Below are positions 1 to 21,252 of a DNA stretch of 43,293 nt, piece by piece. The stretch lies in sequence record PV357169.1. The stretch is one strand, 5' to 3'. The stretch is from a phage. The position numbers were made by a program, and so were the translations under genes. Below the pieces are notes generated by a model, which did no database searches, was not told where the DNA came from, and saw only the letters and a list, made by a program, of their open reading frames with translations. How positions within the stretch are numbered: the stretch's first letter is position 1; every line of letters begins with the position of its first letter.

Positions 1-314
1 CACAGCGTGCTTACTCATTACCTGCTGATATTGGTTCTGGGGTTACTGTTGTAAGCCTTAGTCCTGCCGGAGTATTAGTACACTCTGCCGGTAATGTAGA
101 CTTAGGTGCACTTGCTGTTGCTAGTGGGGCCACTTCAGGAACATTAACTATACCTAATGCAGATACAACTAAGTCGTATAGCGTTCGCCCATGGGTAGAT
201 AATCCAGCTACTGTAAACGATACTGCTTCCTGCGCTGCTGGCGTAATTACAGTAAACAGGCCTGTAGCAGTAGGTGTCCAACTTCCATCTACAGTGGAAT
301 ACTTATTGTTTTAA
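1..314 (+). CDS. 3' part of a gene that starts at 43046 and crosses the contig junction (156 aa in total); hypothetical protein downstream of the tailspike
   Basis: Frame from ATG 43046 continues through the 91-nt end overlap to TAA at 312-314; product is Ser/Thr/Val/Ala/Gly-rich; followed directly by a hairpin terminator. Confidence 0.5.
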   Translation, partial: QRAYSLPADIGSGVTVVSLSPAGVLVHSAGNVDLGALAVASGATSGTLTIPNADTTKSYSVRPWVDNPATVNDTASCAAGVITVNRPVAVGVQLPSTVEYLLF

Positions 315-315
315 A

Positions 316-350
316 CAAAGCCCCCCCCCCCCTGTAGTTGGGGGCTTTTC
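316..350 (+). terminator. Hairpin terminator after the last gene (poly-C tract / GGGGG stem followed by CTTTTCCTTTT)
   Basis: C12 run at 321-332, loop TGTAGTT, GGGGG at 340-344, then T-rich tail. Confidence 0.45.
321..332 (+). repeat. Homopolymer tract C12
   Basis: Seen directly; matched by a G13 tract at 562-574 about 230 bp downstream. Confidence 0.9.
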
Positions 351-531
351 CTTTTGTAGGTTAGTATTTATAAGTACTATTCCAGGTGCATATACGAAGT
401 TATCTGCAAGTGGGTACAAGAGAAGCGCCTGGAACATCACAAGGACTTCTCCCCCTGCGCAGGTGTATATCTGAACTCGAAATTTGTTATACTTACCCGA
501 CAGGGTCCCTCACCCTCAACGCGCCCAATTG

Positions 532-544
532 CCCCCATAGGGGG
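532..544 (+). repeat. Perfect palindrome CCCCCATAGGGGG
   Basis: Seen directly; as I recall the same 13-mer lies in the T7 terminal repeat, which suggests proximity to a genome end. Confidence 0.6.
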
Positions 545-561
545 TGTCCTGGGAGAATTTA

Positions 562-574
562 GGGGGGGGGGGGG
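562..574 (+). repeat. Homopolymer tract G13
   Basis: Seen directly. Confidence 0.9.
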
Positions 575-798
575 TATCTAGGTGGCTGGATGTCTGGACG
601 TCTAGATGGCCGCGGGCAGCCTGGGGCCTGCCAGTGCCTCTATGGCGCTCTCAGCGGCTCTCTGCGCTGCGCTAGGGCTATCGCTAGTGCTACCCTACGG
701 CTATGCCTGTGCGTTCACTAGGGCGCTTCCTGTGCGCTCCCTGTGGGCCATAGGGGTGCGCTCTGCCTTGCTTATTTTGTGCAGCCATAGTGCCACAC

Positions 799-820
799 CT
801 AGTGGGCCGTAGTGGGCCGC
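799..820 (+). repeat. Tandem direct repeat, 2 x TAGTGGGCCG
   Basis: Seen directly in the non-coding left-end region. Confidence 0.7.
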
Positions 821-846
821 CCAGTGCGCCGCTAGTGCGTCTATAT

Positions 847-881
847 GCTATCTCTAGAGCTATCTCTAGGGTTATCTCTAG
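847..881 (+). repeat. Tandem direct repeat, 3 x ~12 bp (GCTATCTCTAG / AGCTATCTCTAG / GGTTATCTCTAG)
   Basis: Seen directly. Confidence 0.8.
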
Positions 882-940
882 TGCTTTACATTGTGCCGAT
901 TATATGCTACGCTGCGCGCTCCCCACTAGGGCGCACATCC

Positions 941-980
941 ACTACCCACCACTACCCACCACTATCCACCACTATCCGCT
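941..980 (+). repeat. Tandem direct repeat, 4 x 10 bp (ACTACCCACC x2, ACTATCCACC, ACTATCCGCT)
   Basis: Seen directly. Confidence 0.8.
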
Positions 981-1056
981 ACACTCTGCCGTACTCTGTC
1001 GCTATCCCCAGAGCTATCCCTTACTCTTACTTTCATTCGAAAGCTATTCTGAAATG

Positions 1057-1073
1057 ATGTTACAGGAGTAGGA
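1057..1073 (+). promoter_or_regulatory. Copy 1 of conserved motif ATGTTACAGGAGTAGGA (candidate phage-RNAP promoter or nick-site element)
   Basis: Identical 17-mer also at 21259-21275 and 33408-33424; a variant at 13115-13134. Confidence 0.4.
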
Positions 1074-1494
1074 GGGTTTTAGGGAACTACATACACACTA
1101 CTTACTACTACTCACTAGTATCCCCTAGTAATGCCCTGTATTACGACCGTAGGGAGTAAGCATTACCTACACAGTCACCGCATCACTACGTGTCCTTTCA
1201 CTACGTACGGACACTACGTGACGCTTTATGTAGTACCGTGTAGTGTTGACTAGTAGTGGCTAGTATCGGCTAGTGCTATCCCTATTATGGTTGTAAGTAT
1301 TTGCCCTGCTTACCCTTTTTTGCCCTTAGGGATAAATATTTGCAAAAACTTTAAAATATTACTTGCTTCTTTTGGTTTGTTAGCGCTATAGTTCAATCAC
1401 CGGGAGGCGCTGAGGCGCTGAACGGGGTAGAGTCGGGAGACTCCACCGGATTAAAGCTAAATAGTGTGAAGGGTTAGATACTCAATAAAAAGAG

Positions 1495-1523
1495 TTGACA
1501 CCGCGAGGGACATAAGTTAGATT
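1495..1523 (+). promoter_or_regulatory. Candidate host sigma70 early promoter (TTGACA - 17 bp - TAGATT)
   Basis: Perfect -35 hexamer at 1495-1500, 17-bp spacer, 4/6 match -10 at 1518-1523; rightward, at the start of an ATG-poor leader before the first early gene. Confidence 0.4.
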
Positions 1524-1949
1524 GAATCCCGAAGTAAGAAGACTTCCCGATAGGTGATTAGCATCACGTTAAAAGGCTTCAACGGGGAGGCATCGGAAGA
1601 TGCAAGGTAGGACGCGCAAGGAGGCGCTAACAGGTAGTAAGAAATAAACGCGTGACAAGTTCTGATTCACCTAGTAACTTAGATAGCGAACAACGTAGTA
1701 AGCTGGTTTGCGGGGAGGCCCAGTACCTTAACTGGTACGTTGACGACCAAGCCTAGATAATCAGTTATAAAGAGTAAACGTGCCGGACGTTATCACCGGG
1801 GTTCTGAGGCAAACCTTACTGCCGAGGCGTGAGCAGCACGCTCCTCTGAATCGAGGGAACAAGGCGCGGAGTGTATCCCGCAAAGAGCATATAACATAGC
1901 GTAGCAGTAACAAGGCTGCGCTAGATTATGTTCTCTGAGAGGTAAGAGT

Positions 1950-2147
1950 ATGCGCAAAGCAAAACGCCTAGTATTGCGGCGGAATATGCAGTTATCACTG
2001 AATCCTACCGACGACGTGCCGCTTACTGTGAAGCCCAGCAAACAAGGACTTAGCAGTGAGCACAAGGTGAGGGGAAAGCAAAAACAAAAGGGCGGCAGTA
2101 AACAGCCTAGTGGGTGGCCTACTGTTAACTCCCAATTTGGGCACTAA
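1950..2147 (+). CDS. Small basic early protein (65 aa), hypothetical
   Basis: ATG preceded by GAGAGG 7 nt upstream; first ORF after the long leader. Confidence 0.45.
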   Translation: MRKAKRLVLRRNMQLSLNPTDDVPLTVKPSKQGLSSEHKVRGKQKQKGGSKQPSGWPTVNSQFGH

Positions 2148-2153
2148 TTACAG

Positions 2154-2183
2154 CCTATAGCATCCTATGTGGTGCTATGTGAA
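2154..2183 (+). promoter_or_regulatory. Conserved stem-loop element A (CCTATAGCATCCT...GCTATGTGAA)
   Basis: Stem TAGCA/TGCTA; same flanks and a co-varying stem at 2937-2966 and 9714-9745; 45 nt upstream of the gene at 2226. Confidence 0.45.
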
Positions 2184-2225
2184 GTAATTCGATAAGTAAA
2201 CAACCAACAATCAAAGAGGTGCGTC

Positions 2226-2801
2226 ATGACTCATTCAACTGGTAAAGTATTTAAGCTCACTGCTGCTGCTGGTATCCGCAAAGCACTGTCTGGCGTAGTG
2301 GAAGCAAAGCGCAACATCACTATCAGCGCGCTCTTTCACGGCCTGATTAGCAGCAACGTTTCCTGGGCTACTGAAATGCAGCGCAGCGACGCCGCTGACT
2401 TCGATATGGTGCTGCGTACGCTGTTGCCCATCAAGTTTAACAAGGAGTCCGGCAAGTACGAATTCAATGCTAAGAAGTGCTATGCGTCTGCTGAGAAGCT
2501 GGGTATCGAACTGGACACTATGCGTCTGGATTATAAACAAGCTGACAAGCAAGGCCGTGAAGAGATTGTGACCAGCTTCTATAGCTCCTGTATGGCCCTG
2601 TACGCTGCTGAAGCAGAGCAAGTGAAGAATGATGCCCTTGATGCCGATGCAGTGCGCCTGCAAGCTCTGGGGCGCGTTAAAAACGCCATCAAGAAGGCTA
2701 AAGAAACTGGGGTGAGCGACTCTGATTTGGTATCTATGCTTATCAGTCAGGGCGTGGATGTACGCGCTGTACTGGATGCAACTTTGAAGGTAGCGGCATG
2801 A
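2226..2801 (+). CDS. Early protein, hypothetical (191 aa)
   Basis: Long ORF with AAGAGG RBS 7 nt upstream. Confidence 0.7.
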   Translation: MTHSTGKVFKLTAAAGIRKALSGVVEAKRNITISALFHGLISSNVSWATEMQRSDAADFDMVLRTLLPIKFNKESGKYEFNAKKCYASAEKLGIELDTMRLDYKQADKQGREEIVTSFYSSCMALYAAEAEQVKNDALDADAVRLQALGRVKNAIKKAKETGVSDSDLVSMLISQGVDVRAVLDATLKVAA

Positions 2802-2929
2802 TTTATAAGATTCAAGCTATCAAGTGGTGGGCATTGATTCCGGCAGCTAACGACTCTGACGCCTTTGATGTGCCAACCCGGGGCCGCCATAACAGGTGGC
2901 ACTATAAGGGATTGGGAGAATACGTATAA
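2798..2929 (+). CDS. Small hypothetical protein (43 aa), translationally coupled (ATGA overlap)
   Basis: ATG overlaps the stop of the upstream gene; below the ORF-track size cutoff. Confidence 0.25.
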   Translation: MIYKIQAIKWWALIPAANDSDAFDVPTRGRHNRWHYKGLGEYV

Positions 2930-2936
2930 TGGTAAG

Positions 2937-2966
2937 CCTATAGCGTCCTGCGGGGCGCTATGTGAA
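2937..2966 (+). promoter_or_regulatory. Conserved stem-loop element B (CCTATAGCGTCCT...GCTATGTGAA)
   Basis: Stem ATAGCG/CGCTAT; compensatory change relative to element A. Confidence 0.45.
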
Positions 2967-2989
2967 TACCGTTAACAACGGGGTTTCAA

Positions 2990-3211
2990 ATGAAAGCAAA
3001 GCTAATCTATCCGGGGCATGTACTCTGGCCCGTATGGTGCAATCAAGTGCATACAGAGTATAACTATACTGTGATGATATTCTCTGACCGCGACACCAAT
3101 CAGGAATCCCCTTTAGATCTCGTAGACACCCATACCGAAGCAGCGGCGCGTACTTTGCTGGATGCCGTGAATCTCGGTATTATTACCGACTGGAGACAAC
3201 TTTATGACTAG
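2990..3211 (+). CDS. Early protein, hypothetical (73 aa)
   Basis: ORF directly downstream of stem-loop B; weak RBS. Confidence 0.5.
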   Translation: MKAKLIYPGHVLWPVWCNQVHTEYNYTVMIFSDRDTNQESPLDLVDTHTEAAARTLLDAVNLGIITDWRQLYD

Positions 3212-3467
3212 TATTGTCAATATCATTGTTACCAGCGCCATGCTGGTGCTAGGCAACGATGTGAATAACCCAGTGCCTTATTGCACTGTACACGTCCAAC
3301 AAGGGCAGCAGCAGGAGCAGCAACCACGCCCTGAGTACGACCTCTTTGAGAATCCAGAGGGCGGTTGCAAGGCGTTAGGTATTCGCCTACTTAAGGCGGT
3401 GCGAGAACAAGTGCCTAACGTCGCGGTAACTCTGACCGTGGACGGTGTAAGCAACAACGGTATCTGA
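3204..3467 (+). CDS. Early protein, hypothetical (87 aa, Gln-rich centre)
   Basis: Start overlaps the stop of the upstream gene. Confidence 0.5.
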   Translation: MTSIVNIIVTSAMLVLGNDVNNPVPYCTVHVQQGQQQEQQPRPEYDLFENPEGGCKALGIRLLKAVREQVPNVAVTLTVDGVSNNGI

Positions 3468-3474
3468 GGTGGGT

Positions 3475-3654
3475 ATGTACGGAAAGAATCCTGAAACGCT
3501 GCTGATGCGTAGGCAGCAACCAACAATCGACGGGCTAGCGCGGGAGTACAGCGCAAAAGCAGCGCTGCGCCAGCACTATGAGAAACAAGCAAAGCGGCTG
3601 GGTATGACCCTGCGCGGTTACTGTCACCGTTTTAATGTGCGAGGTGTAATATGA
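3475..3654 (+). CDS. Early protein, hypothetical (~59 aa; GTG start at 3469 also possible)
   Basis: GAGGTGGGT directly upstream of ATG 3475. Confidence 0.45.
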   Translation: MYGKNPETLLMRRQQPTIDGLAREYSAKAALRQHYEKQAKRLGMTLRGYCHRFNVRGVI

Positions 3655-3854
3655 ATGAATTAGTTGCATATGACTTGTACAAGCGCCCGAACGGGTTACT
3701 GTACCGGGTGCCGCTGTATGGTACGCTGAACGAGCACGCTGAACACTATAACAAACCTCTGCAGCGGTGGTTGCAGTCAAGCCACACAGTTGGCGGTATA
3801 GTATCCAGCGACAAGAGCACACTCGTGGCTCGCAATGTAGTATTCAAGGATTAA
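3651..3854 (+). CDS. Early protein, hypothetical (67 aa)
   Basis: ATGA overlap with the upstream gene. Confidence 0.5.
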   Translation: MNELVAYDLYKRPNGLLYRVPLYGTLNEHAEHYNKPLQRWLQSSHTVGGIVSSDKSTLVARNVVFKD

Positions 3855-3856
3855 GT

Positions 3857-4201
3857 ATGCTTACAGTAGACGAAACAGCGCTACTGTGCTGGCGCTTGCT
3901 AGAAACGCAGGGCAAGTGCGGGTGCCCGTGGGAAATATTCAAAGAGGTTCCAGATGAACTCAAGCAAATCGTGCCAGTCGAGCGCCGATTACTCCGCGTT
4001 AGAAAAGAGGGTATTGGCACTGTTCTCACAACCTATCGAGAGTATACAGAGTCTGCCGCGCGCAGATTGCAAGAGCACATTTCGTTCGATGTGGTTGCAG
4101 CACTCCTACGGTACGGGTATCGTGGAGCCTATACAAGATTTAGGGCGGCTGTGCGCTCGTATTATAAGCAGCGACAACTCTCAGCGTGGTATGCACGCTG
4201 A
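3857..4201 (+). CDS. Early protein, hypothetical (114 aa)
   Basis: Internal ATG of track ORF 3767-4201, with AAGGA RBS 8 nt upstream and no overlap with the preceding gene. Confidence 0.5.
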   Translation: MLTVDETALLCWRLLETQGKCGCPWEIFKEVPDELKQIVPVERRLLRVRKEGIGTVLTTYREYTESAARRLQEHISFDVVAALLRYGYRGAYTRFRAAVRSYYKQRQLSAWYAR

Positions 4202-4247
4202 ACTTTTAATGCATGATGAGATACTACTAACACCGGAGACAAAGAAA

Positions 4248-5948
4248 ATGCAAGGGACTAATAAAGTAACTGTAGACGTAAAAGTACCTGCCCACGAGGG
4301 TTGGACCATCAAATTTCCAGAAGGGGCCAATGCTCTTCCACTGAAGGATAGTATGTACTCTTCCGGGGATTACTGGTGCCAACTTCCCTACCTATCAACT
4401 CAAGGCCGTGCGCGCGTGCAAAGTAACAAAACCCGTGCGCTTTTGAATGGCTTTTATATGTTGTCAAGGGTGCTGCCGGGGTACCATGTAGCACTCGGCA
4501 ACTTTACAGCTGCAGGAGAGGAGTTGAGTGTATATACTGGGCCGCTGGGCACGGTTGATGTTAGTGACACTCTCCTGCATAACCTCTTTGGCTGTGCAGG
4601 TACCTGCGACCAAGCATTCGGTTTATCTAGCAGAAACTTCTATGATGGCCCTGACGTAGTTACAGAACGCGTAGTAGAAGCGGTCCAATACTTTACCGGA
4701 TACAAGGTGCACAAGCAGGCTATAGAGTTATTCGAAGAGATTATGCTAGCACCTACGTACTCCCTCCGGCGCAAATACCTTCGTGGGTACAGTGAAATTG
4801 ATGGGGATTACTGGGCAGCAACCTTGCTTATGCAGTTGCACGGATTTGTAGTATCTAGATTTGCAATCCCACTAGGTTTCGGCTTCCGCAACGGTGAGCC
4901 TGTAGTAATGCTGGGGCAGCCGCGATTACACAAAGACTACGCCGCTGTTACTGAGTATCGCTGTGTAGAGATGCGAGTAGGTAAGTGGCTCGCTAACTAT
5001 TACGGCAGCGGTGTAGACTTCAGGGAATGTATTGAAGACCTCAAAGCTATGAATGTGGAGCCTACTACATATCTTTGTAAGACCGAGCGGGAGTGGTACA
5101 ACGCATACGAGAATGGTCCTCGTAGCTGCATGACCGGATACAACTTCGAAGATAGCCCGGTGCGTGTATACGCTACGACTAGTCACGGCTTGCCGGACAA
5201 TAATCTGCGCCTGTTCATCCAGTATACTGGGGAACTTTTTGGTGACGACTTTGAAGTGCACGCCCGTGCTATCGTTAACATCGAAACCAATGAATATGTC
5301 CGTGCATATGGGGATGCTGCGGATGCCATCCTACGTGCTAACGGATATGAGTGCAATACAGACTGCTTAGATGGCGTACTACTGGCGCGTATTCCGCACC
5401 CTGAAAATGAAGGTGCCGTGCTTATGCCGTACTTGGATGGGAACCAAGACGGGGTGGATGAATTGGGCGGGGATGCATTCGTTATCTGCGACTGCTACGA
5501 CTACGAAGCGAAGGACGCTGCTGGTTACATTTGGATTGATGATGGTCACAGTGCTTGTGCAGAGTGTGGGGGACGTTTCGACGAGGATGACATGTACGTA
5601 GCTTGTGACGGTGGTTATGTATGCCCGCACTGCATCGGTGATACTTACGTACAGGTAGTGGGCCGCAGCATAGTGTACCCATCATGGGATTGCTCATGGT
5701 CTGACTACCACGACTCTTGGGTACTTGACCGGGACGTAGAACATTGTGCTGTAGAGGGTACAGTGCATGATGAAGAGCCAATGGCGTGCGTACAAGGGTA
5801 CAATGTTCTGAGTGTGCATGCCGAAGAGCACCCAGTGCACGGTATGATTCTCACGGAGTATGCTGCGTCCATATTGGATGAGCCCTACCTCGGTAATGAA
5901 GAAGCCGAAGAAGACAAAGAAGCTAAAGCAGAACAGGAGGCAGCTTAA
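4248..5948 (+). CDS. Large early protein of unknown function with a Cys-rich C-terminal region (CDCYDY, CAECGG, CPHC), ~566 aa
   Basis: Start chosen at ATG 4248 with GGAGA RBS (track ORF opens at 3954 but overlaps the previous gene); paired Cys motifs suggest metal binding. Confidence 0.55.
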   Translation: MQGTNKVTVDVKVPAHEGWTIKFPEGANALPLKDSMYSSGDYWCQLPYLSTQGRARVQSNKTRALLNGFYMLSRVLPGYHVALGNFTAAGEELSVYTGPLGTVDVSDTLLHNLFGCAGTCDQAFGLSSRNFYDGPDVVTERVVEAVQYFTGYKVHKQAIELFEEIMLAPTYSLRRKYLRGYSEIDGDYWAATLLMQLHGFVVSRFAIPLGFGFRNGEPVVMLGQPRLHKDYAAVTEYRCVEMRVGKWLANYYGSGVDFRECIEDLKAMNVEPTTYLCKTEREWYNAYENGPRSCMTGYNFEDSPVRVYATTSHGLPDNNLRLFIQYTGELFGDDFEVHARAIVNIETNEYVRAYGDAADAILRANGYECNTDCLDGVLLARIPHPENEGAVLMPYLDGNQDGVDELGGDAFVICDCYDYEAKDAAGYIWIDDGHSACAECGGRFDEDDMYVACDGGYVCPHCIGDTYVQVVGRSIVYPSWDCSWSDYHDSWVLDRDVEHCAVEGTVHDEEPMACVQGYNVLSVHAEEHPVHGMILTEYAASILDEPYLGNEEAEEDKEAKAEQEAA

Positions 5949-6982
5949 TGTACGGTGTTGACCTTAAACTACTGACAAAGATACTAACAACGCACCGACC
6001 TAGCTGGGGTAGTACCAAATGGTTTGAACCTCTACTTAGTAGCGCTCTTGCTGGTGCAGAGCACTACGTTAGGGATGCTCATGGTAACTACTTTGTGCTT
6101 ATTGGTGGCTCTGAACAGAGTGATGTAGCATTTACATCACACCTCGACACAGTGGCCCGGCCTGGTAGTGCTGCGCCAGACATTGCAACCACTAACAAGG
6201 GTGTAATGTTCCTGCGGAATCCACAGGTGGCGGATTGTCTAGGTGCAGACTGTGGTGCTGGTATCTACTTGATGCTGGAGATGATTAAGCGGGGAGTACA
6301 TGGACGTTACTGCTTCTTCGTGGATGAAGAGGTAGGCTGTGAAGGCAGCAGTGCATCCGCCAAGGACGACACTGGCTTCTGGACTGGTGTCAAGGCAATG
6401 ATTAGTTTTGACCGCCGAGGTGATGAGATCATTACGCATCAACGATACCAGCGTTGCTGTTCTGATACGTTCGCAAAGGAGCTGGCGGCCCGACTAGGAC
6501 GAACGGATGCGCACTTACAAAAAGGGGTATACACTGACTCTGCTGAGTTCATGCAGATTATCCCCGAATGCACTAACGTAGGTGTAGGGTACATGCACGA
6601 ACATACACCAGATGAGGTGCTGGACCTTAGCATTCTTGGTAGCGTACTGGAGCGCGTACTTAGTCCGGGTACATTCAAGCACCTGCCGATTGAGCGTGAT
6701 CCTAAAGTAGTGGAACCGGATGCGTGGTTATCTGCCTATACGCATCCCCTAACGATGCCTCTGGATGTTCCCCCTGCGGAAGATCCGCATTTACTAGCAG
6801 CGTTTAAGGAGGTGTCACAACTTTCTAAGCAGCAACTGATTAGCTGGGTGCTAGATAACCCAGCAAGAGCGGCGGAATACATCATGGTGTATTCTGATTA
6901 TGGCTTCAAAGAAGAGCTGATTGAACTAGGCACCCGAGTTGTAGAGGACTGGGGTGGATACGATAATATTGTGGAGGGTTGA
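5948..6982 (+). CDS. Putative M20/M28-like zinc metallopeptidase (344 aa)
   Basis: Ordered motifs SHLDTV, GADCGAG, DEEVGCEGS and a later His (GYMHEHT) resemble the metal-ligand pattern of M20-type peptidases; TAATG coupling to the upstream gene. Confidence 0.45.
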   Translation: MYGVDLKLLTKILTTHRPSWGSTKWFEPLLSSALAGAEHYVRDAHGNYFVLIGGSEQSDVAFTSHLDTVARPGSAAPDIATTNKGVMFLRNPQVADCLGADCGAGIYLMLEMIKRGVHGRYCFFVDEEVGCEGSSASAKDDTGFWTGVKAMISFDRRGDEIITHQRYQRCCSDTFAKELAARLGRTDAHLQKGVYTDSAEFMQIIPECTNVGVGYMHEHTPDEVLDLSILGSVLERVLSPGTFKHLPIERDPKVVEPDAWLSAYTHPLTMPLDVPPAEDPHLLAAFKEVSQLSKQQLISWVLDNPARAAEYIMVYSDYGFKEELIELGTRVVEDWGGYDNIVEG

Positions 6983-6984
6983 TT

Positions 6985-7452
6985 ATGTCTAAGTTTAAAG
7001 TTGGTGATAAAGTAGTACGCAAATCACCCGACGACAGCTCGTCGTTTAAGAAGCGCCAAGGGGATTTTGATTACTACACAGTTACAGCTATATCCTCAGG
7101 CGGTCACTGGTTACGGTTGAACAATTGTACTATCGATGGTGACTGGTACCCGTGGTATGCATCTAACTTTGAGCTGTACCAAGAGCCGGACGACGAGCTG
7201 CCACCGGTTCCAGCTAGTGTGGCTTACATGAACTCCAAGCGCGACCGCGGCAACGACCAGCGGCTAGTCCTAGAAAGATGCAGTTGGACTGATGAGAACC
7301 TACTCTACATCGGAATAGTTCCTAAAAAGAACAGCACCCGGGCAGAGCAGGAGATTGGTATTAATATGAGTCCTGATGCAGCCCTGCAACTAGCACACGA
7401 CCTTCGTCGCATGGCTATGGATATCAAACGTAAGGGGAAAGCAAATGCATAA
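6985..7452 (+). CDS. Hypothetical protein (155 aa)
   Basis: GGAGGG RBS 6 nt upstream of ATG 6985 (track starts at TTG 6979). Confidence 0.6.
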   Translation: MSKFKVGDKVVRKSPDDSSSFKKRQGDFDYYTVTAISSGGHWLRLNNCTIDGDWYPWYASNFELYQEPDDELPPVPASVAYMNSKRDRGNDQRLVLERCSWTDENLLYIGIVPKKNSTRAEQEIGINMSPDAALQLAHDLRRMAMDIKRKGKANA

Positions 7453-7648
7453 AATTATCACGTACAAAATGCCGCCTAAGAGTATTGTGGTTGGCATTCC
7501 GTTCACTTGGGGATCATGCAGCTTTTGGGTTATAAAGGTAGAGGGTGGCTACATATACCGTCTGGACGATGGACGGAAGGTGGATGTACCCGAAAGAGAC
7601 ATTTTATTGTGTGGAATAGTATACGCTAACAGAATCGAGATTAAGTAA
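7445..7648 (+). CDS. Hypothetical protein (67 aa)
   Basis: AAGGGGA RBS; overlapping stop/start with neighbours. Confidence 0.5.
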   Translation: MHKIITYKMPPKSIVVGIPFTWGSCSFWVIKVEGGYIYRLDDGRKVDVPERDILLCGIVYANRIEIK

Positions 7649-8439
7649 TGGACCAGCCCTGGCTTAGAGCGTGCAAGCGCCTGGCCGTGGGGCAGAGGGC
7701 ACGCTTTCGGTGCTGCGGCAGGGACTCCGCCGGGGTGCTCTATAATAACCCGGATGCCTGGGAATACTATTGCCACCGCTGCAAACAGGTAGGCAAGGAG
7801 CGCAAGCAGTACCAGCGCATACAGTTACAGGAAGAGCCGAGGGTGCAGCCCTCTGCACCTGCAGATGCAATTTGCATTAGCCAAGCGCCTGCAGAAACGC
7901 AGAGTTTTATTTACGGATTCCTTGCTTCAAAGGGAATCATGCCTGAAATGGTGGGGGATGCAGAATGGAGCAAAGAGAAACAGCGGATAATCTTCCGTGT
8001 CGGAAGCGCTGCTCTGGGCCGTGCAGTACATGCTCGGCAGCAACCGAAGTGGGTAATGTACGGCCAGCCAATAGCTTTCGCTGTCGCGGAACCTGCCGTA
8101 GCACCGGCTGTAGCTGCGGGCGCTCCTCTAAAGGTCGTGCTCACAGAGGACTTACTCTCAGCCCTGAAGATACAGCACGCAGTTACGAGCTACAGTGCGT
8201 TGAACGTGCAGGCTATAGCTATGCTGGGTACACGCTTGCCCACGCAGCTAAGGGCCTGGCTGATTCAGAATCGCCCGGAAGTGATTCTAATGTTGGACAA
8301 TGACCCGGCAGGACATGCTGGGGTAGCGGCAACACGCCGGGCACTGCGCCCGTTCATGCAGTGCCGAGAACACTACTTCGCTGCGGATCCTAAGGACGCA
8401 GAAATCAAAGAGATACTGGAGGCATTAACTTGGACTTAA
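7648..8439 (+). CDS. DNA primase (zinc-ribbon + TOPRIM)
   Basis: CCGRDSAG...YYCHRCKQ zinc-binding pattern; acidic TOPRIM motifs LTEDLL and MLDNDPAG. Confidence 0.7.
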   Translation: MDQPWLRACKRLAVGQRARFRCCGRDSAGVLYNNPDAWEYYCHRCKQVGKERKQYQRIQLQEEPRVQPSAPADAICISQAPAETQSFIYGFLASKGIMPEMVGDAEWSKEKQRIIFRVGSAALGRAVHARQQPKWVMYGQPIAFAVAEPAVAPAVAAGAPLKVVLTEDLLSALKIQHAVTSYSALNVQAIAMLGTRLPTQLRAWLIQNRPEVILMLDNDPAGHAGVAATRRALRPFMQCREHYFAADPKDAEIKEILEALTWT

Positions 8440-9710
8440 TAGTTGTGCGTGCAATGTGCACGCAGAAGGTCTGGAACCGACTGCGAGAGCAGATACCCAA
8501 GTCTATGCTTGCGCCGGACACCTCGAACCTGCTGGACTGGGTAGGGCTGTACTGGAACACGTACCCAGAGCACCAAGAGGTGCAGTGGGATGCGATGCAG
8601 AGTATGCTCAACCTCCGGGCCGGGCATCTATCCCGTGAAGAGCGGGTGATTATGGATGAGCTTATGCGGGGAGTACAAGCCGTACCACAGGATTCTGTGG
8701 TGGGGATTGTGCAGACCCTGAATGAGTTGGCATACAGCGGAGAGGTTGCAGCGCTCACGCAGCGCTACCAAGACGGTGAGGAGGTTGATTATCTACTGGA
8801 GATGAAGCACCTCCAGCGCAAGTACGGGGATGGTGCTGCTGTTCATGATTCGCTACTAGAGTGGGAGAGCGGAAGTGTTGATGAGATACTTGCCGCGACT
8901 GATGAAAGTGGTGGTCTTAAACTGGGCGTATTTGAGCAACTCTCTAATAGCATCCGCGGGCTTCGCGGTGGTGATTGTATTGCTGTGGCTGCCCCTGTTG
9001 ATTCTGGTAAAACTAGCCTACTCGCTGCTATTGCTGTGGACTTTGCTAAGCAGATGCAGCAGCAACCGGAGGTGTACGGGGATCGTCCGATTCTATGGCT
9101 GGTTAATGAAGGCCCGGCGACGCGCACTGTGCCGAGGGTATACCAAGCGGCGCTGCATTGGACTCTGGCTGAGATTAAGGACAGGCACAGTAAGCAAGAG
9201 TTTGTGCCGGCCTATTTGGAGAAAGTAGGTAGGGCTGACCGCATCCGTATCAAGGCGGCACACTCTCTTACTATGGCTCAAATCTCTACGCTAATGGAGG
9301 AGATGCGCCCGGCGGTAATCATCATAGATATGGTAGCTAACATCCGTGGTGGTACGATGGAGAGCGAACACCAGAACCTAGAGGCGAAGTGGCAGGAGCT
9401 GCGAATCCTGGGGTGTGAGAATGACTGTGCCGTTATTGGTACTATGCAGCTTTCACTCGAAGGTTATAACCTGCTGTTTCCACCGCTCACAGCAATGAAG
9501 CAGAGTAAGATTGGTGTGCAAGGTGCTTTGGATTTAGCAATTATGATGGGGTGCTTGGACAGGAACGAGCAGCCGCATATGCAAAACATTCGTGGTATCA
9601 GTACGCCGAAGAATAAGATGGCGCTATCGGGTAAGGAATCGCTACTGCAATTCGAGGTAGCATTCGACCCAGGTAGATGCCGATTTAACGAAGGGCAGAT
9701 TAACAAGTGA
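8430..9710 (+). CDS. Replicative DNA helicase (DnaB/T7 gp4 C-terminal-like)
   Basis: Walker A AAPVDSGKTSLL; directly follows the primase; probable TTG start with GGAGG RBS. Confidence 0.75.
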   Translation: MDLIVVRAMCTQKVWNRLREQIPKSMLAPDTSNLLDWVGLYWNTYPEHQEVQWDAMQSMLNLRAGHLSREERVIMDELMRGVQAVPQDSVVGIVQTLNELAYSGEVAALTQRYQDGEEVDYLLEMKHLQRKYGDGAAVHDSLLEWESGSVDEILAATDESGGLKLGVFEQLSNSIRGLRGGDCIAVAAPVDSGKTSLLAAIAVDFAKQMQQQPEVYGDRPILWLVNEGPATRTVPRVYQAALHWTLAEIKDRHSKQEFVPAYLEKVGRADRIRIKAAHSLTMAQISTLMEEMRPAVIIIDMVANIRGGTMESEHQNLEAKWQELRILGCENDCAVIGTMQLSLEGYNLLFPPLTAMKQSKIGVQGALDLAIMMGCLDRNEQPHMQNIRGISTPKNKMALSGKESLLQFEVAFDPGRCRFNEGQINK

Positions 9711-9871: not shown

Positions 9872-10019
9872 ACCGTCCGACATTAACTATCTCGACGAAG
9901 AGGTAATTAAGGCGTACGCTGCATCTGTGGGTACTTTCAGCATACGGCCCGTGCTAATTAGCAGCCGGCTGATTGTGCACTTGGCTGTCAATAAGGCGCG
10001 GAGGATTAATTGGAGATGA
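9864..10019 (+). CDS. Hypothetical protein (51 aa)
   Basis: Internal ATG of track ORF 9831-10019 with GGAGAAGG RBS. Confidence 0.35.
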   Translation: MLKPSDINYLDEEVIKAYAASVGTFSIRPVLISSRLIVHLAVNKARRINWR

Positions 10020-10465
10020 CAGATTGTATCGACCACGGGCAGAAGGGAAGCACTTGCCGAGGAAAGTGCGCTGGATATGGCCGCTCCAGATTTGATGGAG
10101 AGACAACTGGAAGCCACCGCAAAGCGTATTGTATAGCCCACAACTTGAAGCTGAGTGATATCGCGGGACTTGTAGTCCGGCATTCGTGTGACAATCCTCG
10201 GTGCATAAATCCGGAGCACCTGCTACTAGGGACTTCTAGTGATAATATGCAGGACCGAAATAAAGGTGCGCGTAATTTGCTGGGCAGCCGCAACCCTGCT
10301 GCCAGACTTACCCCAGAAGACGTGCACAGTATACGAGAAGCATATGCTGGCGGTGAGACCCAGGTATCTATAGCGAGACGCTTCGGGATAAGTCAAGGAT
10401 ACATATCTAATATCATAAAGGGGAGGGTATGGAATGAGCAGAAGCATCCTGATAACGGATTATGA
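10010..10465 (+). CDS. HNH homing endonuclease (copy 1)
   Basis: HSCDNPRCINPEHLLLGT HNH core; paralog of 13155-13589; 3' end overlaps the DNA polymerase start by 32 nt. Confidence 0.8.
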   Translation: MEMTDCIDHGQKGSTCRGKCAGYGRSRFDGETTGSHRKAYCIAHNLKLSDIAGLVVRHSCDNPRCINPEHLLLGTSSDNMQDRNKGARNLLGSRNPAARLTPEDVHSIREAYAGGETQVSIARRFGISQGYISNIIKGRVWNEQKHPDNGL

Positions 10466-12773
10466 GACGCAAAATCACCCATATTACGGTAGTGTTGCTT
10501 CCCCGTACTGTCCGGATAATTACATCGTAGAATCAGCGTGGCGTATTGACCGCACGCACGATGACGGTACGGTAGAAGTAGGCCCCGTAGAGAGTGTACG
10601 GTATAACAGTCGCGCGCACTTTGAAGCGGCACCTGTATCAGAATGGCTCCCAATACCAGCTGACTGTTGGCTGATTGTGGCCCACAACGCCGCATATGAG
10701 ATTAGCTGGTTCCTAACCTTTGCGCGCGCCGAGTTTGAGGCCTTCCTAAAGCGGGGAGGTCGCGTATTCTGTACGATGCATTCTGAGTACATCGCCTCGG
10801 ACTTTCAGAGTATGTATCCGTCACTGGACGAGACAGCTCCTAAGTACGGCGGTACGCACAAAGTAGACGGTGTTAAGATTCTATGGGAGCAAGGTGTATT
10901 AACCTCCCAGATCGACCCTATACTATTGCACGACTACCTAGTTAACGGGGATATACCGAACACGGCCCTGTGCTTCTACGGCCAGTGCGGTATCTTTGCA
11001 GAGCGCAACCAAATGCAGTACGTATGGGAGCGCATGGATGCCTTACTGGCCTGGGCCTACTGCGAATGGTTCGGTCTGTTCGTGAATATGCCGATTGCTC
11101 GCAAGAACCAAGAAGAGCAGGAACAGCGTATACTGGAGATTAAGAAGGAGCTGCAGCAGTATATCCCCAAGGACTTGCCGGAGACGCTAGATTTCAACTT
11201 CGGTTCTGACTTTCATATGTCTGCGCTGGTGTATGGCGGCCCTATCAAGTACCGCAAGAAGGTGCCCTACGACCCGCCGCAATACGTCAAGGCGGACTAC
11301 TGGCAAGTAGGCGACACTTGGGTTGCTGTGGATGATATGCCCGCTCCCCCTGGGGCGACTACATACAAGGCCGGGAAGAACAAGGGCTTACCAAAAGTCT
11401 TCCGCATAGATACAGCGGAAGAGAAACTCAAATGGGAAGAGGACCTCTACTTCTGCCCAGGCCTGGTTAACATCCAAGAACTGCCCGAGGTACTCCGAGA
11501 GAAGTATGCTGAGCGTGGAGAGTTCAGGCAAGCCCGGAATCTGCAGGATGGGACACCAATCTACAGCACCAGTACTGATGCTATGGAAGCGCTAGCCCGT
11601 CACGGGTTCGAGTTCTGTCGATTGGTGAACGAGCTAGGTGCTCTGGAGAAGGACACAGGAACCTACTATCTACGAACGGAGTACAACGAAGATGGGTCAG
11701 TTAAAAAGACCTCGGGCATGCTTCAATACGTCATACCTCAGAACCCTGATGGTTCAGGTATTATCCACCACCGTCTTAACACCTGTGCCACCGTCACCGG
11801 GCGACTGTCAGGTTCTAACCCGAATCTCCAGAATCTACCGCGCGATGGGACGAGCCGGGTTAAACAGATGTTCACCTCTCGTTTCGGAGAATCTGGTCGC
11901 ATCACTGAGGTTGACTATTCGGCCCTGGAAGTGGTTATGTCTTGTGTTCACACTGGAGACCTTAAACTACTGGGGCTACTGCAGTCCGGCACGGACATGC
12001 ACTGTTACCGACTAGCATTTAAGGAGAACAAAACCTACGAAGAGATGTACGACCTGTGCCATAACGCTGACGGGCCAGACTACAAGTACTGGAAGCAGCA
12101 GCGTACGGACATTAAGCCCCCTAGTTTTGCTGCGCAGTATGGTGCTACGGCTAAGGGTATCGCCTTTGCTACCGGATGTACCGTAGAGTATGCACAGGCG
12201 TTCCTGGATAACGAGGCTAAGCTGTTCCCAACAACCATAGGATTCCGCGCTGTTGTCAAGGAAGAAGTAGAGCGTACCGGGGCAGCTGGACGCATTTACC
12301 GGGAGCAAGCTGATGATGGTAGTTATCGTATCTACCGAATTGGTACCTGGACCAGCCCAGCAGGTGCCCGCTACAGCTTCCGTCAGAAGGAGCAGTGGAA
12401 GGAAGTAGTCCCTGGCCAGCGCAAGCAGAAGGTGATGGACTACAAGGAAACCGAGATGGCTAACTACTGGTGTCAAGGTGAGGCGTTCTTCTTGATGGCA
12501 GTCGCAGCCGGTATGGTTCTGCGTGCGATGCTGGCACGTGACTGGTTCGACAATCAGGTGTGCTTGATTACGAACGTACACGATGCATTGTATCTTGACA
12601 GTGCCAATCCAGAGGTAGGCAGAGAAGCGAGCCTGTTAGTTAAGCAGTGCATGGAAGACGCACCTAAGCGTATCCACCAGCTATGGCCTAACTACGGTAT
12701 CATTGGGCAGGTCCCGTTCCCAGCGGAAGCTGAAATGGGTACAAGCATGTACAGTAAGGAGAAAGTAGAATGA
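10434..12773 (+). CDS. DNA polymerase, family A (T7 gp5-like)
   Basis: Motif A EVDYSALE, motif B K...FAAQYG, motif C VHDALYLD; N-terminal exonuclease-like region. Confidence 0.9.
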   Translation: MSRSILITDYETQNHPYYGSVASPYCPDNYIVESAWRIDRTHDDGTVEVGPVESVRYNSRAHFEAAPVSEWLPIPADCWLIVAHNAAYEISWFLTFARAEFEAFLKRGGRVFCTMHSEYIASDFQSMYPSLDETAPKYGGTHKVDGVKILWEQGVLTSQIDPILLHDYLVNGDIPNTALCFYGQCGIFAERNQMQYVWERMDALLAWAYCEWFGLFVNMPIARKNQEEQEQRILEIKKELQQYIPKDLPETLDFNFGSDFHMSALVYGGPIKYRKKVPYDPPQYVKADYWQVGDTWVAVDDMPAPPGATTYKAGKNKGLPKVFRIDTAEEKLKWEEDLYFCPGLVNIQELPEVLREKYAERGEFRQARNLQDGTPIYSTSTDAMEALARHGFEFCRLVNELGALEKDTGTYYLRTEYNEDGSVKKTSGMLQYVIPQNPDGSGIIHHRLNTCATVTGRLSGSNPNLQNLPRDGTSRVKQMFTSRFGESGRITEVDYSALEVVMSCVHTGDLKLLGLLQSGTDMHCYRLAFKENKTYEEMYDLCHNADGPDYKYWKQQRTDIKPPSFAAQYGATAKGIAFATGCTVEYAQAFLDNEAKLFPTTIGFRAVVKEEVERTGAAGRIYREQADDGSYRIYRIGTWTSPAGARYSFRQKEQWKEVVPGQRKQKVMDYKETEMANYWCQGEAFFLMAVAAGMVLRAMLARDWFDNQVCLITNVHDALYLDSANPEVGREASLLVKQCMEDAPKRIHQLWPNYGIIGQVPFPAEAEMGTSMYSKEKVE

Positions 12774-18783: not shown

Positions 18784-21252
18784 ATGATTAGCGCCCTGAA
18801 TACGGTTGTAGTACCAGAGGAAGCACTGGTGGAACGCCAGTTGGAGCTTGAAGAGACCTACAAGATTCGCGGCATTGAACGTGCTCGCAAATTGATTACC
18901 GATGCTCTACAAAACGGCGGGATTATGAACCTGCCAATGACTCAGCGTATGCTCACCTCTGCGTATGATGTAGCCTCTGCAGCCATTGAGGAAATGCGTA
19001 ACGTTAAAGCCCCAGGTATTGGTGGAAAGTACCGCCGATTCCTGCGCTTAGTCCCCTTGGATGTCCTAACTACTCTGAGCCTGTGCACAATGTTTGAGGC
19101 GTTCAGTGTAGCCCCTGGTGAGTCCGCCAGTCGCCGCCAGACAGCTCAGGCAGTGATGTCCGCTCTGGGTAGGAATGTACAGTCAGAGCTGCTGGCCCTA
19201 CAACTACGTAATGTTGCCCCAGCGTATATGGACCGGGTATATGAATACCTCACTGAGCGCCGTACTAAGTCGCCTACGCACATTCTACGTACGCTCCGCG
19301 CCAGTGCTGAGAACGTGCACTATGGGCATGAGCCTTGGACCAACGCTCAGAATATTTCTGTGGGACGTCTGCTGTGTTCCGCAGTGTTTGAGACAGGGCT
19401 GTTCCAGTGGAAGACGGGTAGTGGGAACTTGAGTATGCTATATCCCGCAGATAATGTTATGGAAGCATTTCAGCAGTTAGTGGAATCTGCTGACACTGTA
19501 ACTATGAAGCCTCCGATGCTGGTACCGCCGGTGCAACATACTACACTGTGGGATGGTGGATACCTCACCCCAATCGATAACCGTGGGACGTACCACAACT
19601 CACACATTGACCGCGCCAGACTGCGTGAAGTAGCAGAAGCATTTAAGTCTGCGGACGGTATCAAGAAGGCACTTAATAAGGCGCAGGAAACTCCTTATCG
19701 CATTAATAAGCAAATACTGGAACTGGTACAAGAAGCACGGGCCTTAGGTATTGGTGTAGGTATGCCGCGCTCAGTGCCAGAGCCGAAACCTGAGTGGTAC
19801 TTAGATGGTGTACCAAAAGAGAATTACACCGAGGAGGAACTCGACCGCTTCGGAGAGTGGAAGACGCGTATGTCCTTATGGTACAGCGCCGACCGTAAGC
19901 GTGTGTCGCAACTGCGTAGTCTATTGACCACGCTAGAGATGGCAGAGGAATTCAAAGATGAGAAAGCCTTGTACTTCCCGACTTGTGTGGACTGGCGGTA
20001 CCGACTGTACTTCAAGTCCTCACTGCACCCACAAGGTTCTGATTTGCAGAAAGCCCTTCTTGAATTCGGACGAGGTAAACCTCTGGGAGAGAGGGGGCTA
20101 TTCTGGCTTAAAGTGCACGTCGCTACATGCTTTGGTTATGACGAAACCCTATTCGAAGACCGCGCAGCTTGGGTTGATGCAAACTTTGCAGAGATTGAGC
20201 AGCTCGCGGATTCTCCTTTTGATTGCCCTGCTTTTACCTCCGCCGACAGCCCTTGGTGCTTCCTGGCAGCCGCTATCGACTTGGTTAATGCTGTACGTTC
20301 TGGATGCCCAGAAGAGTATATTAGCCGAATCCCAGTTGCTATGGATGCTACAAACTCAGGTGGGCAGCACCTCTCAGCGCTCCTGAGAGACCCTGTAGGC
20401 GGACGCCTGACGAACCTGTACTGGGAGGGTAACGACAAGAAAGCGGATCTGTATATGGACGTGAAGCGCCGTACGGACGAGAAGGTGATACTGGACCTGG
20501 ACAAAGAGGATTTCGTTATCCAGAGCACGTACTGGAGAGAGAACGAAATCACTCGAAGCATGACCAAGCGTCCTAGCATGACCTACTTCTACAGCGCCAC
20601 GGTGCGCAGCTGCAGCGACTACATCTTTGCAGGGGCCTGTGAAGAGGGGTATGAAGGAACAGACACGCACAGTCTCTGGAACTTATCCTGCTACCTTGCC
20701 CCTAGAATGCGTAGCGCTATTGAGGAAGCTAACCCGGCAGCAGCAGCAGCTATGGGGTATCTGCAGAACCTAGCTAGGCGTGTACCTGCTAGTCAGCATC
20801 TGCAGTGGAAGACTCCTCTAGGCGGGTTGGTGATGAACCGGTACTCTCAGCGAGAGGAGGTGCGTGTACGTATTGATTGTATGAACCTATCTGCCGTGCT
20901 GGTGCACAACCGTGACTTTAAGACCTGTAATAAGCGCAAGGCTGCCTCCGGTATTGCTCCGAACTTTGTACATAGTCTGGATAGTACGCACTTGATGATG
21001 GTACTCTGTGCTGCAGAAGGTATAGATATTATACCTATTCACGATTCGATGGCTACTCACGCATCTGACGTTGATGCTCTGCACCGCCATATCCGTGAAC
21101 AGTTTGTGAAGCTGTACGAGGAGCATGATCTTCTGGGGGATATTACCCGGGCAGCTGCCGAAGCAGGGGCAGACCTCACAGATTTAGAGATGCCTGCAAT
21201 AGGTACTTTGGACATCCGACAAGTACTGGAATCACCCTTCTTCTTCTCATAA
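18784..21252 (+). CDS. DNA-directed RNA polymerase, single-subunit T7-like (822 aa)
   Basis: Catalytic motifs PVAMDATNSGGQHLSALL and IPIHDSMATH; AAGGAG RBS; sits at the end of the replication module. Confidence 0.9.
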   Translation: MISALNTVVVPEEALVERQLELEETYKIRGIERARKLITDALQNGGIMNLPMTQRMLTSAYDVASAAIEEMRNVKAPGIGGKYRRFLRLVPLDVLTTLSLCTMFEAFSVAPGESASRRQTAQAVMSALGRNVQSELLALQLRNVAPAYMDRVYEYLTERRTKSPTHILRTLRASAENVHYGHEPWTNAQNISVGRLLCSAVFETGLFQWKTGSGNLSMLYPADNVMEAFQQLVESADTVTMKPPMLVPPVQHTTLWDGGYLTPIDNRGTYHNSHIDRARLREVAEAFKSADGIKKALNKAQETPYRINKQILELVQEARALGIGVGMPRSVPEPKPEWYLDGVPKENYTEEELDRFGEWKTRMSLWYSADRKRVSQLRSLLTTLEMAEEFKDEKALYFPTCVDWRYRLYFKSSLHPQGSDLQKALLEFGRGKPLGERGLFWLKVHVATCFGYDETLFEDRAAWVDANFAEIEQLADSPFDCPAFTSADSPWCFLAAAIDLVNAVRSGCPEEYISRIPVAMDATNSGGQHLSALLRDPVGGRLTNLYWEGNDKKADLYMDVKRRTDEKVILDLDKEDFVIQSTYWRENEITRSMTKRPSMTYFYSATVRSCSDYIFAGACEEGYEGTDTHSLWNLSCYLAPRMRSAIEEANPAAAAAMGYLQNLARRVPASQHLQWKTPLGGLVMNRYSQREEVRVRIDCMNLSAVLVHNRDFKTCNKRKAASGIAPNFVHSLDSTHLMMVLCAAEGIDIIPIHDSMATHASDVDALHRHIREQFVKLYEEHDLLGDITRAAAEAGADLTDLEMPAIGTLDIRQVLESPFFFS

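Follow-up and report, generated by a model that had tools for sequence, protein, structure and literature searches.

The early regions of KP34-like and PhiM1-like phages comprise everything encoded before the primase and are expected to serve host takeover, with six conserved open reading frames (ORFs) of which the peptidase alone could be named (Buttimer et al. 2018, PMC6115819). The host promoter predicted for KP34, SU503, SU552A, K2044, and F19 (TTGACACCGCGAAGAACATAAGCTAGATT) is identical to the one described here, and in the same study a 32-nt motif was proposed to be a phage promoter or nick site (Eriksson et al. 2015, PMC4411677). As for early-gene function in drulisviruses, our literature search turned up only the toxicity screen for which all non-virion hypothetical genes of phage fHe-Kpn01 were cloned and scored in E. 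coli (Spruit et al. 2020, PMC7291057). Here, we analyse the corresponding region, positions 1950-7648, of a 43,293-nt phage sequence (record PV357169.1; "the window" below means this whole stretch) that megablast assigns to the genus Drulisvirus (KP34-like phages; Slopekvirinae, Autographiviridae). Klebsiella phage KPV811 matches the window at 95.9% identity with 86% of the first 25 kb covered, Escherichia phage Minorna at ~92%, and hundreds of Klebsiella drulisviruses at 78% to 90%. With a probability of roughly 0.65, this region is a block of early genes at the left end of a Drulisvirus genome, read by the host RNA polymerase and encoding products that bind host or phage components.

A left-end block of ten small genes

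As the leftmost coding region of a KP34-like phage, the block matches Minorna, fHe-Kpn01, Shigella phage Buco, and 60 loci based on IMG/VR in gene order and left-end position. These 60 related loci (59 from IMG/VR, retrieved with the M28 peptidase as anchor, plus Minorna) are the sample behind the locus counts, median amino acid (aa) identities, and diversity values below. An earlier note on this DNA, made from its letters alone, had counted about ten ORFs of 43 to 191 aa; there are exactly ten (p1 to p8, p11, and p12), all on the + strand, with eight in 1950-4201 and two in 6985-7648. They are listed here together with the elements between them, giving isoelectric point (pI), PHROG family with expectation value (E), evolutionary layer, occurrence and median aa identity among the 60 loci, and identity to the fHe-Kpn01 counterpart:

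Promoter, 1495-1523, + strand: sigma-70-type host promoter TTGACA-N17-TAGATT in the leader, ~430 nt upstream of p1
p1, 1950-2147, + strand: first gene, 65 aa, pI 11.5, Shine-Dalgarno sequence GAGAGG; phrog_32970 (1e-42); replaceable/sporadic, full-length in 12/60 loci, 92%; 53% to gp02 (C-terminal half)
Hairpin copy 1, 2140-2195 (core 2152-2183), + strand: found by pattern search; 70.7 bits with covariance model R1
p2, 2226-2801, + strand: 191 aa, pI 8.8, under the strongest constraint in the block though in the optional cassette; 41/60 loci, 94%; 94% to gp03
p3, 2798-2929, + strand: 43 aa, ATGA-coupled to p2; phrog_10968 (9e-29); cassette, 29/60 loci, 67%; 70% to gp04
Hairpin copy 2, 2923-2978 (core 2935-2966), + strand: 72.4 bits with R1; minimum free energy -26.5 kcal/mol, z -5.1
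p4, 2990-3211, + strand: 73 aa, variable, mildly acidic (pI 4.83); phrog_7657 (1e-44); cassette, 39/60 loci, 79% (range 43-96%); 72% to gp06
p5, 3204-3467, + strand: 87 aa, pI 4.79; phrog_7036 (6e-46); cassette, 42/60 loci, 75%; 77% to gp07
p6, 3475-3654 (GTG start 3469), + strand: 59/61 aa, pI 10.4; core, 57/60 loci, 90%; 88% to gp09
p7, 3651-3854, + strand: 67 aa, hypervariable slot; phrog_7916; replaceable/sporadic, 49/60 loci, 57% (range 31-93%); 52% to gp10
p8, 3857-4201, + strand: 114 aa, pI 9.6; phrog_6167 (1e-54); core, 59/60 loci, 87%; 84% to gp11
664-aa ORF, 3954-5948, + strand: acidic, 22 cysteines; phrog_6980; core, 59/60 loci, 61%; 59% to gp12
M28-family metallopeptidase, 5948-6982, + strand: 344 aa; phrog_4191 "peptidase" (3e-143); core, 59/60 loci, 82%; 82% to gp13
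p11, 6985-7452, + strand: 155 aa, pI 7.7, near-universal yet hypervariable; phrog_4317; core, 54/60 loci, 63% (range 38-92%); 67% to gp14
p12, 7445-7648, + strand: 67 aa, sporadic, in a replaceable slot just before the primase; phrog_10858 (2e-23); replaceable/sporadic, 10/60 loci, 60%

Each of the ten small ORFs is a true protein-coding gene shaped by purifying selection. Every one has a match in a PHROG family (E 1e-23 to 1e-103) classed as "unknown function", and codon alignments of the 60 loci give more diversity at third than at first and at first than at second codon positions (pi3 > pi1 > pi2) in every one of them, even in p3 (0.44, 0.25, and 0.20, respectively). The ratio of nonsynonymous to synonymous single-step changes runs from 0.12 in p2 (the lowest) to 0.71 in p7 (the highest), with 0.26 for p1 and 0.54 for p4; together with the coding-type diversity, these ratios argue that the ORFs are genes and not chance open frames. 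The start of p8 is ATG 3857 (114 aa), as in Minorna and every relative, and not GTG 3767 (144 aa), and p6 most likely starts at ATG 3475 (59 aa) rather than at GTG 3469 (61 aa).

Translational coupling, already pointed out in the earlier note, pervades the array. Genes p2/p3 and p6/p7 overlap in ATGA, p4/p5 and p11/p12 overlap by 8 nt, TAATG junctions join the 664-aa ORF to the M28 gene and p12 to the primase, and gaps of 2 nt separate p7 from p8 and the M28 gene from p11. Only two intergenic gaps exceed 10 nt, one of 78 nt (p1/p2) and one of 60 nt (p3/p4). An intrinsic terminator considered at 4181-4201 was rejected: its hairpin lacks a T-run, and the number of such matches does not exceed that in shuffled sequences.

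The promoter at 1495-1523 is the sole + strand match of at least 10/12 positions in 1-8500 and is conserved in 49 of the 60 loci. Since the gene for the phage's own RNA polymerase sits 17 kb downstream, we infer that the host RNA polymerase would transcribe the array once the left end of the genome enters the cell, and the small products would subsequently bind host or phage components stoichiometrically. The block precedes the replication genes, as had been noted, with primase, helicase, and then DNA polymerase following it. Both its position and the conserved sigma-70 promoter agree with early expression, except that p11, whose homologue was found in virions (see below), is perhaps not a simple early gene.

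Comparison of the loci sorts the block into three evolutionary layers: core genes, an optional cassette, and replaceable or hypervariable slots. The core consists of the C-terminal motif of p1, p6, p8, the 664-aa ORF, the M28 peptidase, and p11; the cassette runs from hairpin through p2, p3, and the second hairpin to p4 and p5; and the slots are the N-terminal half of p1, p7, and p12, to which p11 can be added for its hypervariable sequence. In loci without p2 to p5, p6 directly follows the genes for a coiled-coil protein (65 aa) and a p1-like protein (72 aa). The first early gene (p1 and its counterparts in loci L015, L021, and L027) exists in two or more versions whose N-terminal halves are unrelated but which have a basic C-terminal motif in common, RGKxKxKGSSKxPxGWxTVNSQxG; nearly all relatives have this motif in their first-gene products. 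The C-terminal half of p1 also matches phrog_6352, and residues 30-65 of p1 are 53% identical to Gp2 of fHe-Kpn01.

The genes are clearly conserved in related phages, and an absence of such conservation was part of what the earlier note had named as speaking against its reading. In tblastn searches of 50,697 phage records, p6, p8, and p11 were each found in 308 to 326 records (316 for p6, 326 for p8), all annotated as hypothetical, from phages of Klebsiella, E. coli, Shigella, Pectobacterium, Dickeya, and Enterobacter; a few Vibrio phages carry p8 and p11, and Erwinia phages carry p8. At 90% identity, the relatives form 1079 clusters for p11 (E <= 0.001), 409 for the 664-aa ORF, and 75 for p2. 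The closest functionally studied counterpart is fHe-Kpn01, whose g02-g15 are an orthologous block in the same order and with the same two hairpins, whereas extra genes (gp05 and gp08), an unrelated gene of 62 aa in the p12 slot, and another allele of the Gp10 family set it apart.

Conserved hairpins and an overlapping reading frame

The motif AGCCTATAGCRTCC....GGGYGCTATGTGAA lies in the only two sizeable intergenic gaps of the block, where no copy would be expected by chance. An alignment of 68 copies with their flanks outlines a 56-nt hairpin with an 8-bp outer stem, whose sequence varies by copy type with complementarity kept, a conserved internal loop (AGCC/UGAA), and a near-invariant inner stem of 10 bp that is capped by a tetraloop (UACG, UAUG, or UGCG). 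Pairing holds in 92.4% of alignment cells, compared to 76% in shuffles and 26% to 46% in slid registers. Changes on both sides are seen in 11 of 18 pairs and all eight outer pairs covary, but much of this covariation is between a few paralogous copy types and therefore reflects few independent events. Two G-U pairs are near-invariant (66/67 and 65/67 sequences), which argues that the hairpin is specific to the sense strand. Minimum-free-energy folds agree with this structure (z-scores of -1.6 to -5.1), and the covariance model has exactly two matches in the 43-kb window, each on the + strand, to which all full-length matches are confined.

Two copies were likewise detected in fHe-Kpn01 and one each in Buco (Bucovirus) and Pectobacterium phage Koot (Phimunavirus), in both cases directly upstream of the p2 homologue. 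The motif is present in 45 loci, and none of the loci without p2 to p5 has it. Two loci without p2 and p3 carry a lone hybrid hairpin in which the left flank is that of copy 1 and the right flank that of copy 2 (L030:1252-1307 and L046:3998-4053); judging from these hybrids, recombination between the hairpin copies would explain the loss of p2 and p3.

By analogy, the hairpins look more like RNase III-type processing sites or regulatory RNA elements than like phage promoters. T7 has RNase III sites between its early cistrons, and the hairpins resemble these sites of T7 early mRNA in being intercistronic, in lying on the sense strand, in forming two coaxial helices of ~20 bp with an internal loop, and in their covariation. 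A reading as T7-type promoters is not supported: such promoters would repeat one conserved sequence of ~23 bp before middle and late transcription units, and here no copy stands before late genes and both lie in the early block; in addition, the sequence upstream of the core differs between the copies and is complementary to the downstream flank. The core does contain CCTATAG, which resembles the initiation region of T7-type promoters, and a dual role of the hairpins that includes promoter activity is still conceivable.

A second unusual feature is the long form of the 664-aa ORF, which starts at ATG 3954 inside p8 behind a strong Shine-Dalgarno sequence (AAGAGG) and overlaps the last 248 nt of p8 (3954-4201) in the +1 frame. 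The overlapping frame is open with an identical start in 56 of the 60 loci, and it stayed open in only 0.46% of trials in which p8 was synonymously recoded with its protein and the phage codon usage kept. At the Leu-Lys and Leu-Thr junctions, where codon usage alone would give a stop in 74% of cases, every sequence uses the rare CTC, and GTA, the commonest Val codon (39%), is nearly absent where it would create a TAG. The overlap recurs in Buco, a phage of another genus whose p8 is 41% identical (ATG 3003, Shine-Dalgarno sequence AGGAG, probability of an open frame 0.009); the arrangement is absent from Pectobacterium phage Koot.

Wobble-site diversity of p8 is not lowered in the overlap (0.31 compared to 0.20), so that selection seems to exclude stop codons rather than to act on the amino acids of the 79-residue extension. 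The extension is interrupted by stops in three loci and therefore is not indispensable, and many annotations start the ORF later, such as the 556-aa form of fHe-Kpn01; for the window, the alternative to ATG 3954 would be ATG 4191. With 363 representative relatives (HMMER, 1.84 billion proteins clustered at 50% identity), the 664-aa ORF represents a sizeable uncharacterised phage protein family. A CxxC...CxxC zinc ribbon comes after its conserved domain (about aa 335-570), in which S391, C392, R438, and D495 are invariant; Pfam had no matching family for any of 83 diverse members, and a profile search of the PDB found no relative.

Candidate functions and competing readings

By analogy with T7, the earlier note had expected host-shutoff functions in the block, and this expectation holds in part: the p7 homologue Gp10 is toxic, but none of the small proteins is related to Gp0.7 or Gp2, although a functional analogy to these is still conceivable. 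The growth-inhibition assay that it had proposed has a published counterpart in the orthologous fHe-Kpn01 block, with a positive result for Gp10 (p7) and negative results for the homologues of p1 to p6 and p8. In that screen, Gp10 reduced colony-forming units (CFU) to a ratio of 0.11 and arrested growth upon arabinose induction from pBAD, while Gp2, Gp3, Gp4, Gp6, Gp7, Gp9, and Gp11 (the homologues of p1, p2, p3, p4, p5, p6, and p8) were not called toxic, with CFU ratios of 0.42 for Gp6 and 0.49 for Gp11 (PMC7291057). Gp10 and p7 occupy the equal slot between the p6 and p8 homologues and align over 64/67 residues with 52% identity and 70% positives (E 9e-24); conservation of p7 is confined to both ends of the protein, and alleles differ by up to ~65%. 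Because its homologue arrests the growth of E. coli, a host-shutoff-type activity is plausible for p7.

As the earlier note had stated, the small ORFs have no recognisable features: searches of Pfam, NCBIfam, PADLOC, PHROGs, and PDB sequences gave no functional match. Within Pfam, the only hit is DUF7267 (p6), besides sub-threshold noise (DUF2161, a dynein domain, and 53BP1-Tudor); NCBIfam returned noise only, PADLOC had 0 matches among the block proteins, and neither Pfam nor NCBIfam revealed a kinase-like domain of the Gp0.7 type. A PDB sequence search with the concatenated small proteins found no credible relative, Ocr and Gp2 included, and profile searches of the PDB with the families of p2, p5, p6, p8, and p11 did not either.

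For several products, the comparisons nevertheless allow some description. The confidently predicted model of p2 is all-alpha apart from one beta-hairpin and has no fold match in the PDB; an ankyrin-like PDB match was rejected as a lone 17-residue motif, and the phiKMV-like Pantoea phage LIMElight encodes an uncharacterised protein with weak structural similarity to p2 (Foldseek E 7e-3). The N-terminal segment of p5 (NIIVTSAMLVLG) is hydrophobic and conserved, with a maximum hydropathy of 1.91 over 17 residues at residue 1, and two cysteines (C27 and C55) are invariant; on account of this, p5 is probably membrane-anchored or exported. The assignment of p5 to the DinI superfamily in the GenBank note for fHe-Kpn01 gp07 was not borne out, since 0 of 37 family members match Pfam DinI at E <= 5 and the PDB profile search with the p5 family retrieved no DinI chain.

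The core protein p6, also found in Pectobacterium and Dickeya phages, matches DUF7267 (PF23929) over model positions 1-64 of 64 (E 1.9e-26; 92.7 bits at a cut-off of 27), a family without known function of which we found no mention in the literature searched, and its family profile has no relative in the PDB. The same is true of p8, for which a KaiC match in the PDB (E 0.2) was dismissed; its homologues in Bucovirus, Phimunavirus, and an Erwinia phage are 29% to 41% identical. Erwinia phage Loshitsa2 (L063, 3405-4785) encodes its p8 homologue directly before an ATP-dependent DNA ligase and the primase. This locus lacks the 664-aa ORF and the M28 peptidase, and p8 is thus conserved more widely than its neighbours. 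For p12, there is a weak Tudor match below the cut-off (E 0.03).

In p11, the N-terminal motif MSKFKVGDKVV and a C-terminal helix are invariant. AlphaFold2 models residues 1-68 at a predicted local distance difference test score (pLDDT) of 74-91 and residues 71-125 below 50. The first 68 residues are predicted to form an SH3/Tudor/KOW-like beta-barrel with weak Foldseek matches in the PDB, the best being Tudor and KOW domains (E 0.2-0.4) and ribosomal protein L24 (E 0.19-2 over all of these, probability up to 0.97); a family profile found no PDB sequence match. The homologue Gp14 has an HHpred match to R67 dihydrofolate reductase, which has an SH3-like fold (92%, E 0.31; PMC7291057). The adjacent peptidase passes PF04389 (M28) with 23.1 bits at a cut-off of 21.3, ahead of weaker M20 and M42 matches, and candidate metal-ligand motifs read by inspection are SH65LD67, GAD101, DE127E128, FD155, and H217EH219.

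Several observations weigh against reading the whole interval as early genes directed at the host. In the toxicity screen, homologues of seven of the eight tested ORFs were non-toxic in E. coli, which argues that most block members are not general growth inhibitors; moreover, the strains in the screen were E. coli DH10B and DH5alpha instead of the natural host, and Gp10 and p7 share only 52% identity. Conservation is strongest in p2, p6, and p8, where it appears more typical of phage-internal functions than of arms-race genes, and from p6 on the array is contiguous with the replication genes, so that some members may act in replication. The virion-associated homologues of p11, the 664-aa ORF, and the peptidase do not fit a simple early model for 3954-7452. 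Finally, a literature search found no work on expression timing or transcriptomics in drulisviruses.

One alternative, which we regard as tentative, is that p6, p8, the C-terminal tail of p1, and possibly p2 are phage-directed transcription, RNA-processing, or replication factors rather than anti-host weapons. High aa identity (94% for p2, 90% for p6, and 87% for p8) with nonsynonymous-to-synonymous ratios of 0.12 to 0.44 would fit such a role, as would the basic character of p6, p8, and p1 (pI 9.6 to 11.5), the translational chaining to primase and helicase, the place of the p8 homologue directly before DNA ligase and primase in Loshitsa2, the conserved RNA hairpin that always precedes the p2 homologue in three genera, and the lack of toxicity of the fHe-Kpn01 homologues. 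However, neither Pfam nor PDB profile searches reveal a DNA- or RNA-binding domain, the fold of p2 is without known match, and p2 is dispensable in about one-third of relatives.

It is also possible, though we would not favor it, that the products of 3954-7452 (the 664-aa ORF, the M28 peptidase, and p11) are carried in the virion, either ejected with the DNA or built into the particle, and are no classical early products; the hypervariability of p11 would then reflect direct contact with variable host factors at entry. Gp12, Gp13, and Gp14 (the homologues of these three proteins) were detected by liquid chromatography-tandem mass spectrometry in purified fHe-Kpn01 virions, whereas primase, helicase, and DNA polymerase were not (PMC7291057). 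The three genes are contiguous and coupled, and p11 shows 38% to 92% identity within one genus in addition to its 1079 clusters. Protein p11 may be a virion protein. Yet the detection comes from a single proteomic study that detected 29 of 56 proteins and whose authors allow for carry-over (PMC7291057), 15 kb separate the genes from the structural module downstream, and none matches a structural-protein family. A bolder version, which we consider doubtful, combines an injected counter-host module of the 664-aa protein, the M28 peptidase, and SH3-like p11, which would be packaged in the virion, enter with the DNA, and act before transcription, with new takeover effectors (the p7/Gp10 family and p2) whose expression would be organised by RNase III-like hairpins instead of phage promoters.

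The anti-restriction function that the earlier note had also expected by analogy with T7 is unsupported in the block: no relative of Ocr and no strongly acidic small ORF is present, and AntiDefenseFinder is negative in drulisviruses. It is very unlikely that any of the small ORFs encodes a DNA mimic of the Ocr type, or an anti-restriction or anti-defence protein of another known kind, that is too diverged to be recognised easily. Only the positional analogy with T7 gene 0.3 and the mildly acidic p4 and p5 could be cited in its favor. These two are the most acidic small ORFs (pI 4.83 with 10 Asp and Glu among 73 residues and pI 4.79 with 8 among 87), basic proteins (pI >= 9.0) make up six of the ten, and Ocr is far more acidic than either p4 or p5. 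The PDB contains structures of several anti-restriction and anti-defence proteins, and neither single sequences nor profiles gave a credible match to any PDB chain. Pfam, NCBIfam, and PADLOC gave no match to such proteins either, and two published studies that ran AntiDefenseFinder on drulisviruses obtained no hits (PMC12629751, PMC13286925).

Hardly credible, finally, is the idea that the smallest ORFs (p3, p1, and p12) arose by chance, for which one could cite that p3 is unannotated in Minorna and that full-length p1 and p12 occur in only 12/60 and 10/60 loci, because all three have PHROG families (E 1e-23 to 1e-42), coding-type codon-position diversity, nonsynonymous-to-synonymous ratios of 0.26 to 0.50, and Shine-Dalgarno sequences or coupled starts, and fHe-Kpn01 annotates p3 as gp04.

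Genome context and comparison with known systems

The + strand is the coding strand for practically all genes of the 43.3-kb window, and the following genes lie downstream of the block:

Toprim primase, 7648-8439: directly after the small-ORF block
DnaB-like helicase, 8430-9710
HNH endonuclease with C-terminal helix-turn-helix, 10010-10465: between helicase and DNA polymerase, sharing 32 nt with the start of the polymerase gene; a probable insertion of a homing endonuclease
Family A DNA polymerase, 10434-12773
T7-type RNA polymerase gene, 18784-21252: 17 kb downstream
Portal, terminase, and tailspike genes: 3' of the RNA polymerase gene

Upstream, the leader (1-1950, ~1.9 kb) is non-coding and has a single strong sigma-70 consensus match. 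In the first 1 kb, the GC skew is reversed relative to the remaining genome. Scans of the window for Rfam families and tRNAs gave no matches.

Few phages are isolated and used against multidrug-resistant Klebsiella as often as drulisviruses, and the block is carried by more than 300 genomes in which all of its genes but the peptidase are annotated as "hypothetical". Sorting these genes into core, cassette, and slots narrows the order in which they would be tested, with p7 as the best candidate for host shutoff and p11 and p7 as the best candidates for an arms race with the host. If the block does encode new inhibitors of host functions or defences, these could help to predict host range in phage therapy and suggest new antibacterial targets. 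The parts worth pursuing are the hairpins, the overlap of p8 with the 664-aa ORF, and the leads on p7 and p11.

Among known systems, the class I early genes of T7 resemble the block in being small genes at the first-entering end that host RNA polymerase reads from strong promoters and that are separated by structured intergenic RNA. Unlike in T7, the RNA polymerase gene of the window lies 17 kb downstream and not in the block, and the T7 early proteins have no sequence or structural homology to the products described here. In the phiKMV/LUZ19-type podoviruses of Pseudomonas, as in the window, the DNA-metabolism region ends with the RNA polymerase gene. Their early regions contain many small orphan genes, some of which inhibit host growth; homology to this type is limited to the weak structural similarity of p2 with the LIMElight protein. 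For the doubtful injected module, Dar of P1 and IPI* of T4 are parallels in function only, without homology.

Close matches are also the early regions of the KP34-like and PhiM1-like phages themselves, and the block is a member of this known, repeatedly annotated, and functionally unexplored gene set, with nothing surprising to a specialist. Those papers list hypothetical proteins only and read the 32-nt motif as a possible phage promoter or nick site, whereas in our analysis it behaves as a strand-specific hairpin with compensatory changes. As in the window, their early regions combine a few conserved hypothetical ORFs with one peptidase, the same sigma-70 promoter, and the 32-nt motif, and the RNA polymerase gene likewise comes last in the early/middle region (PMC4411677, PMC6115819).

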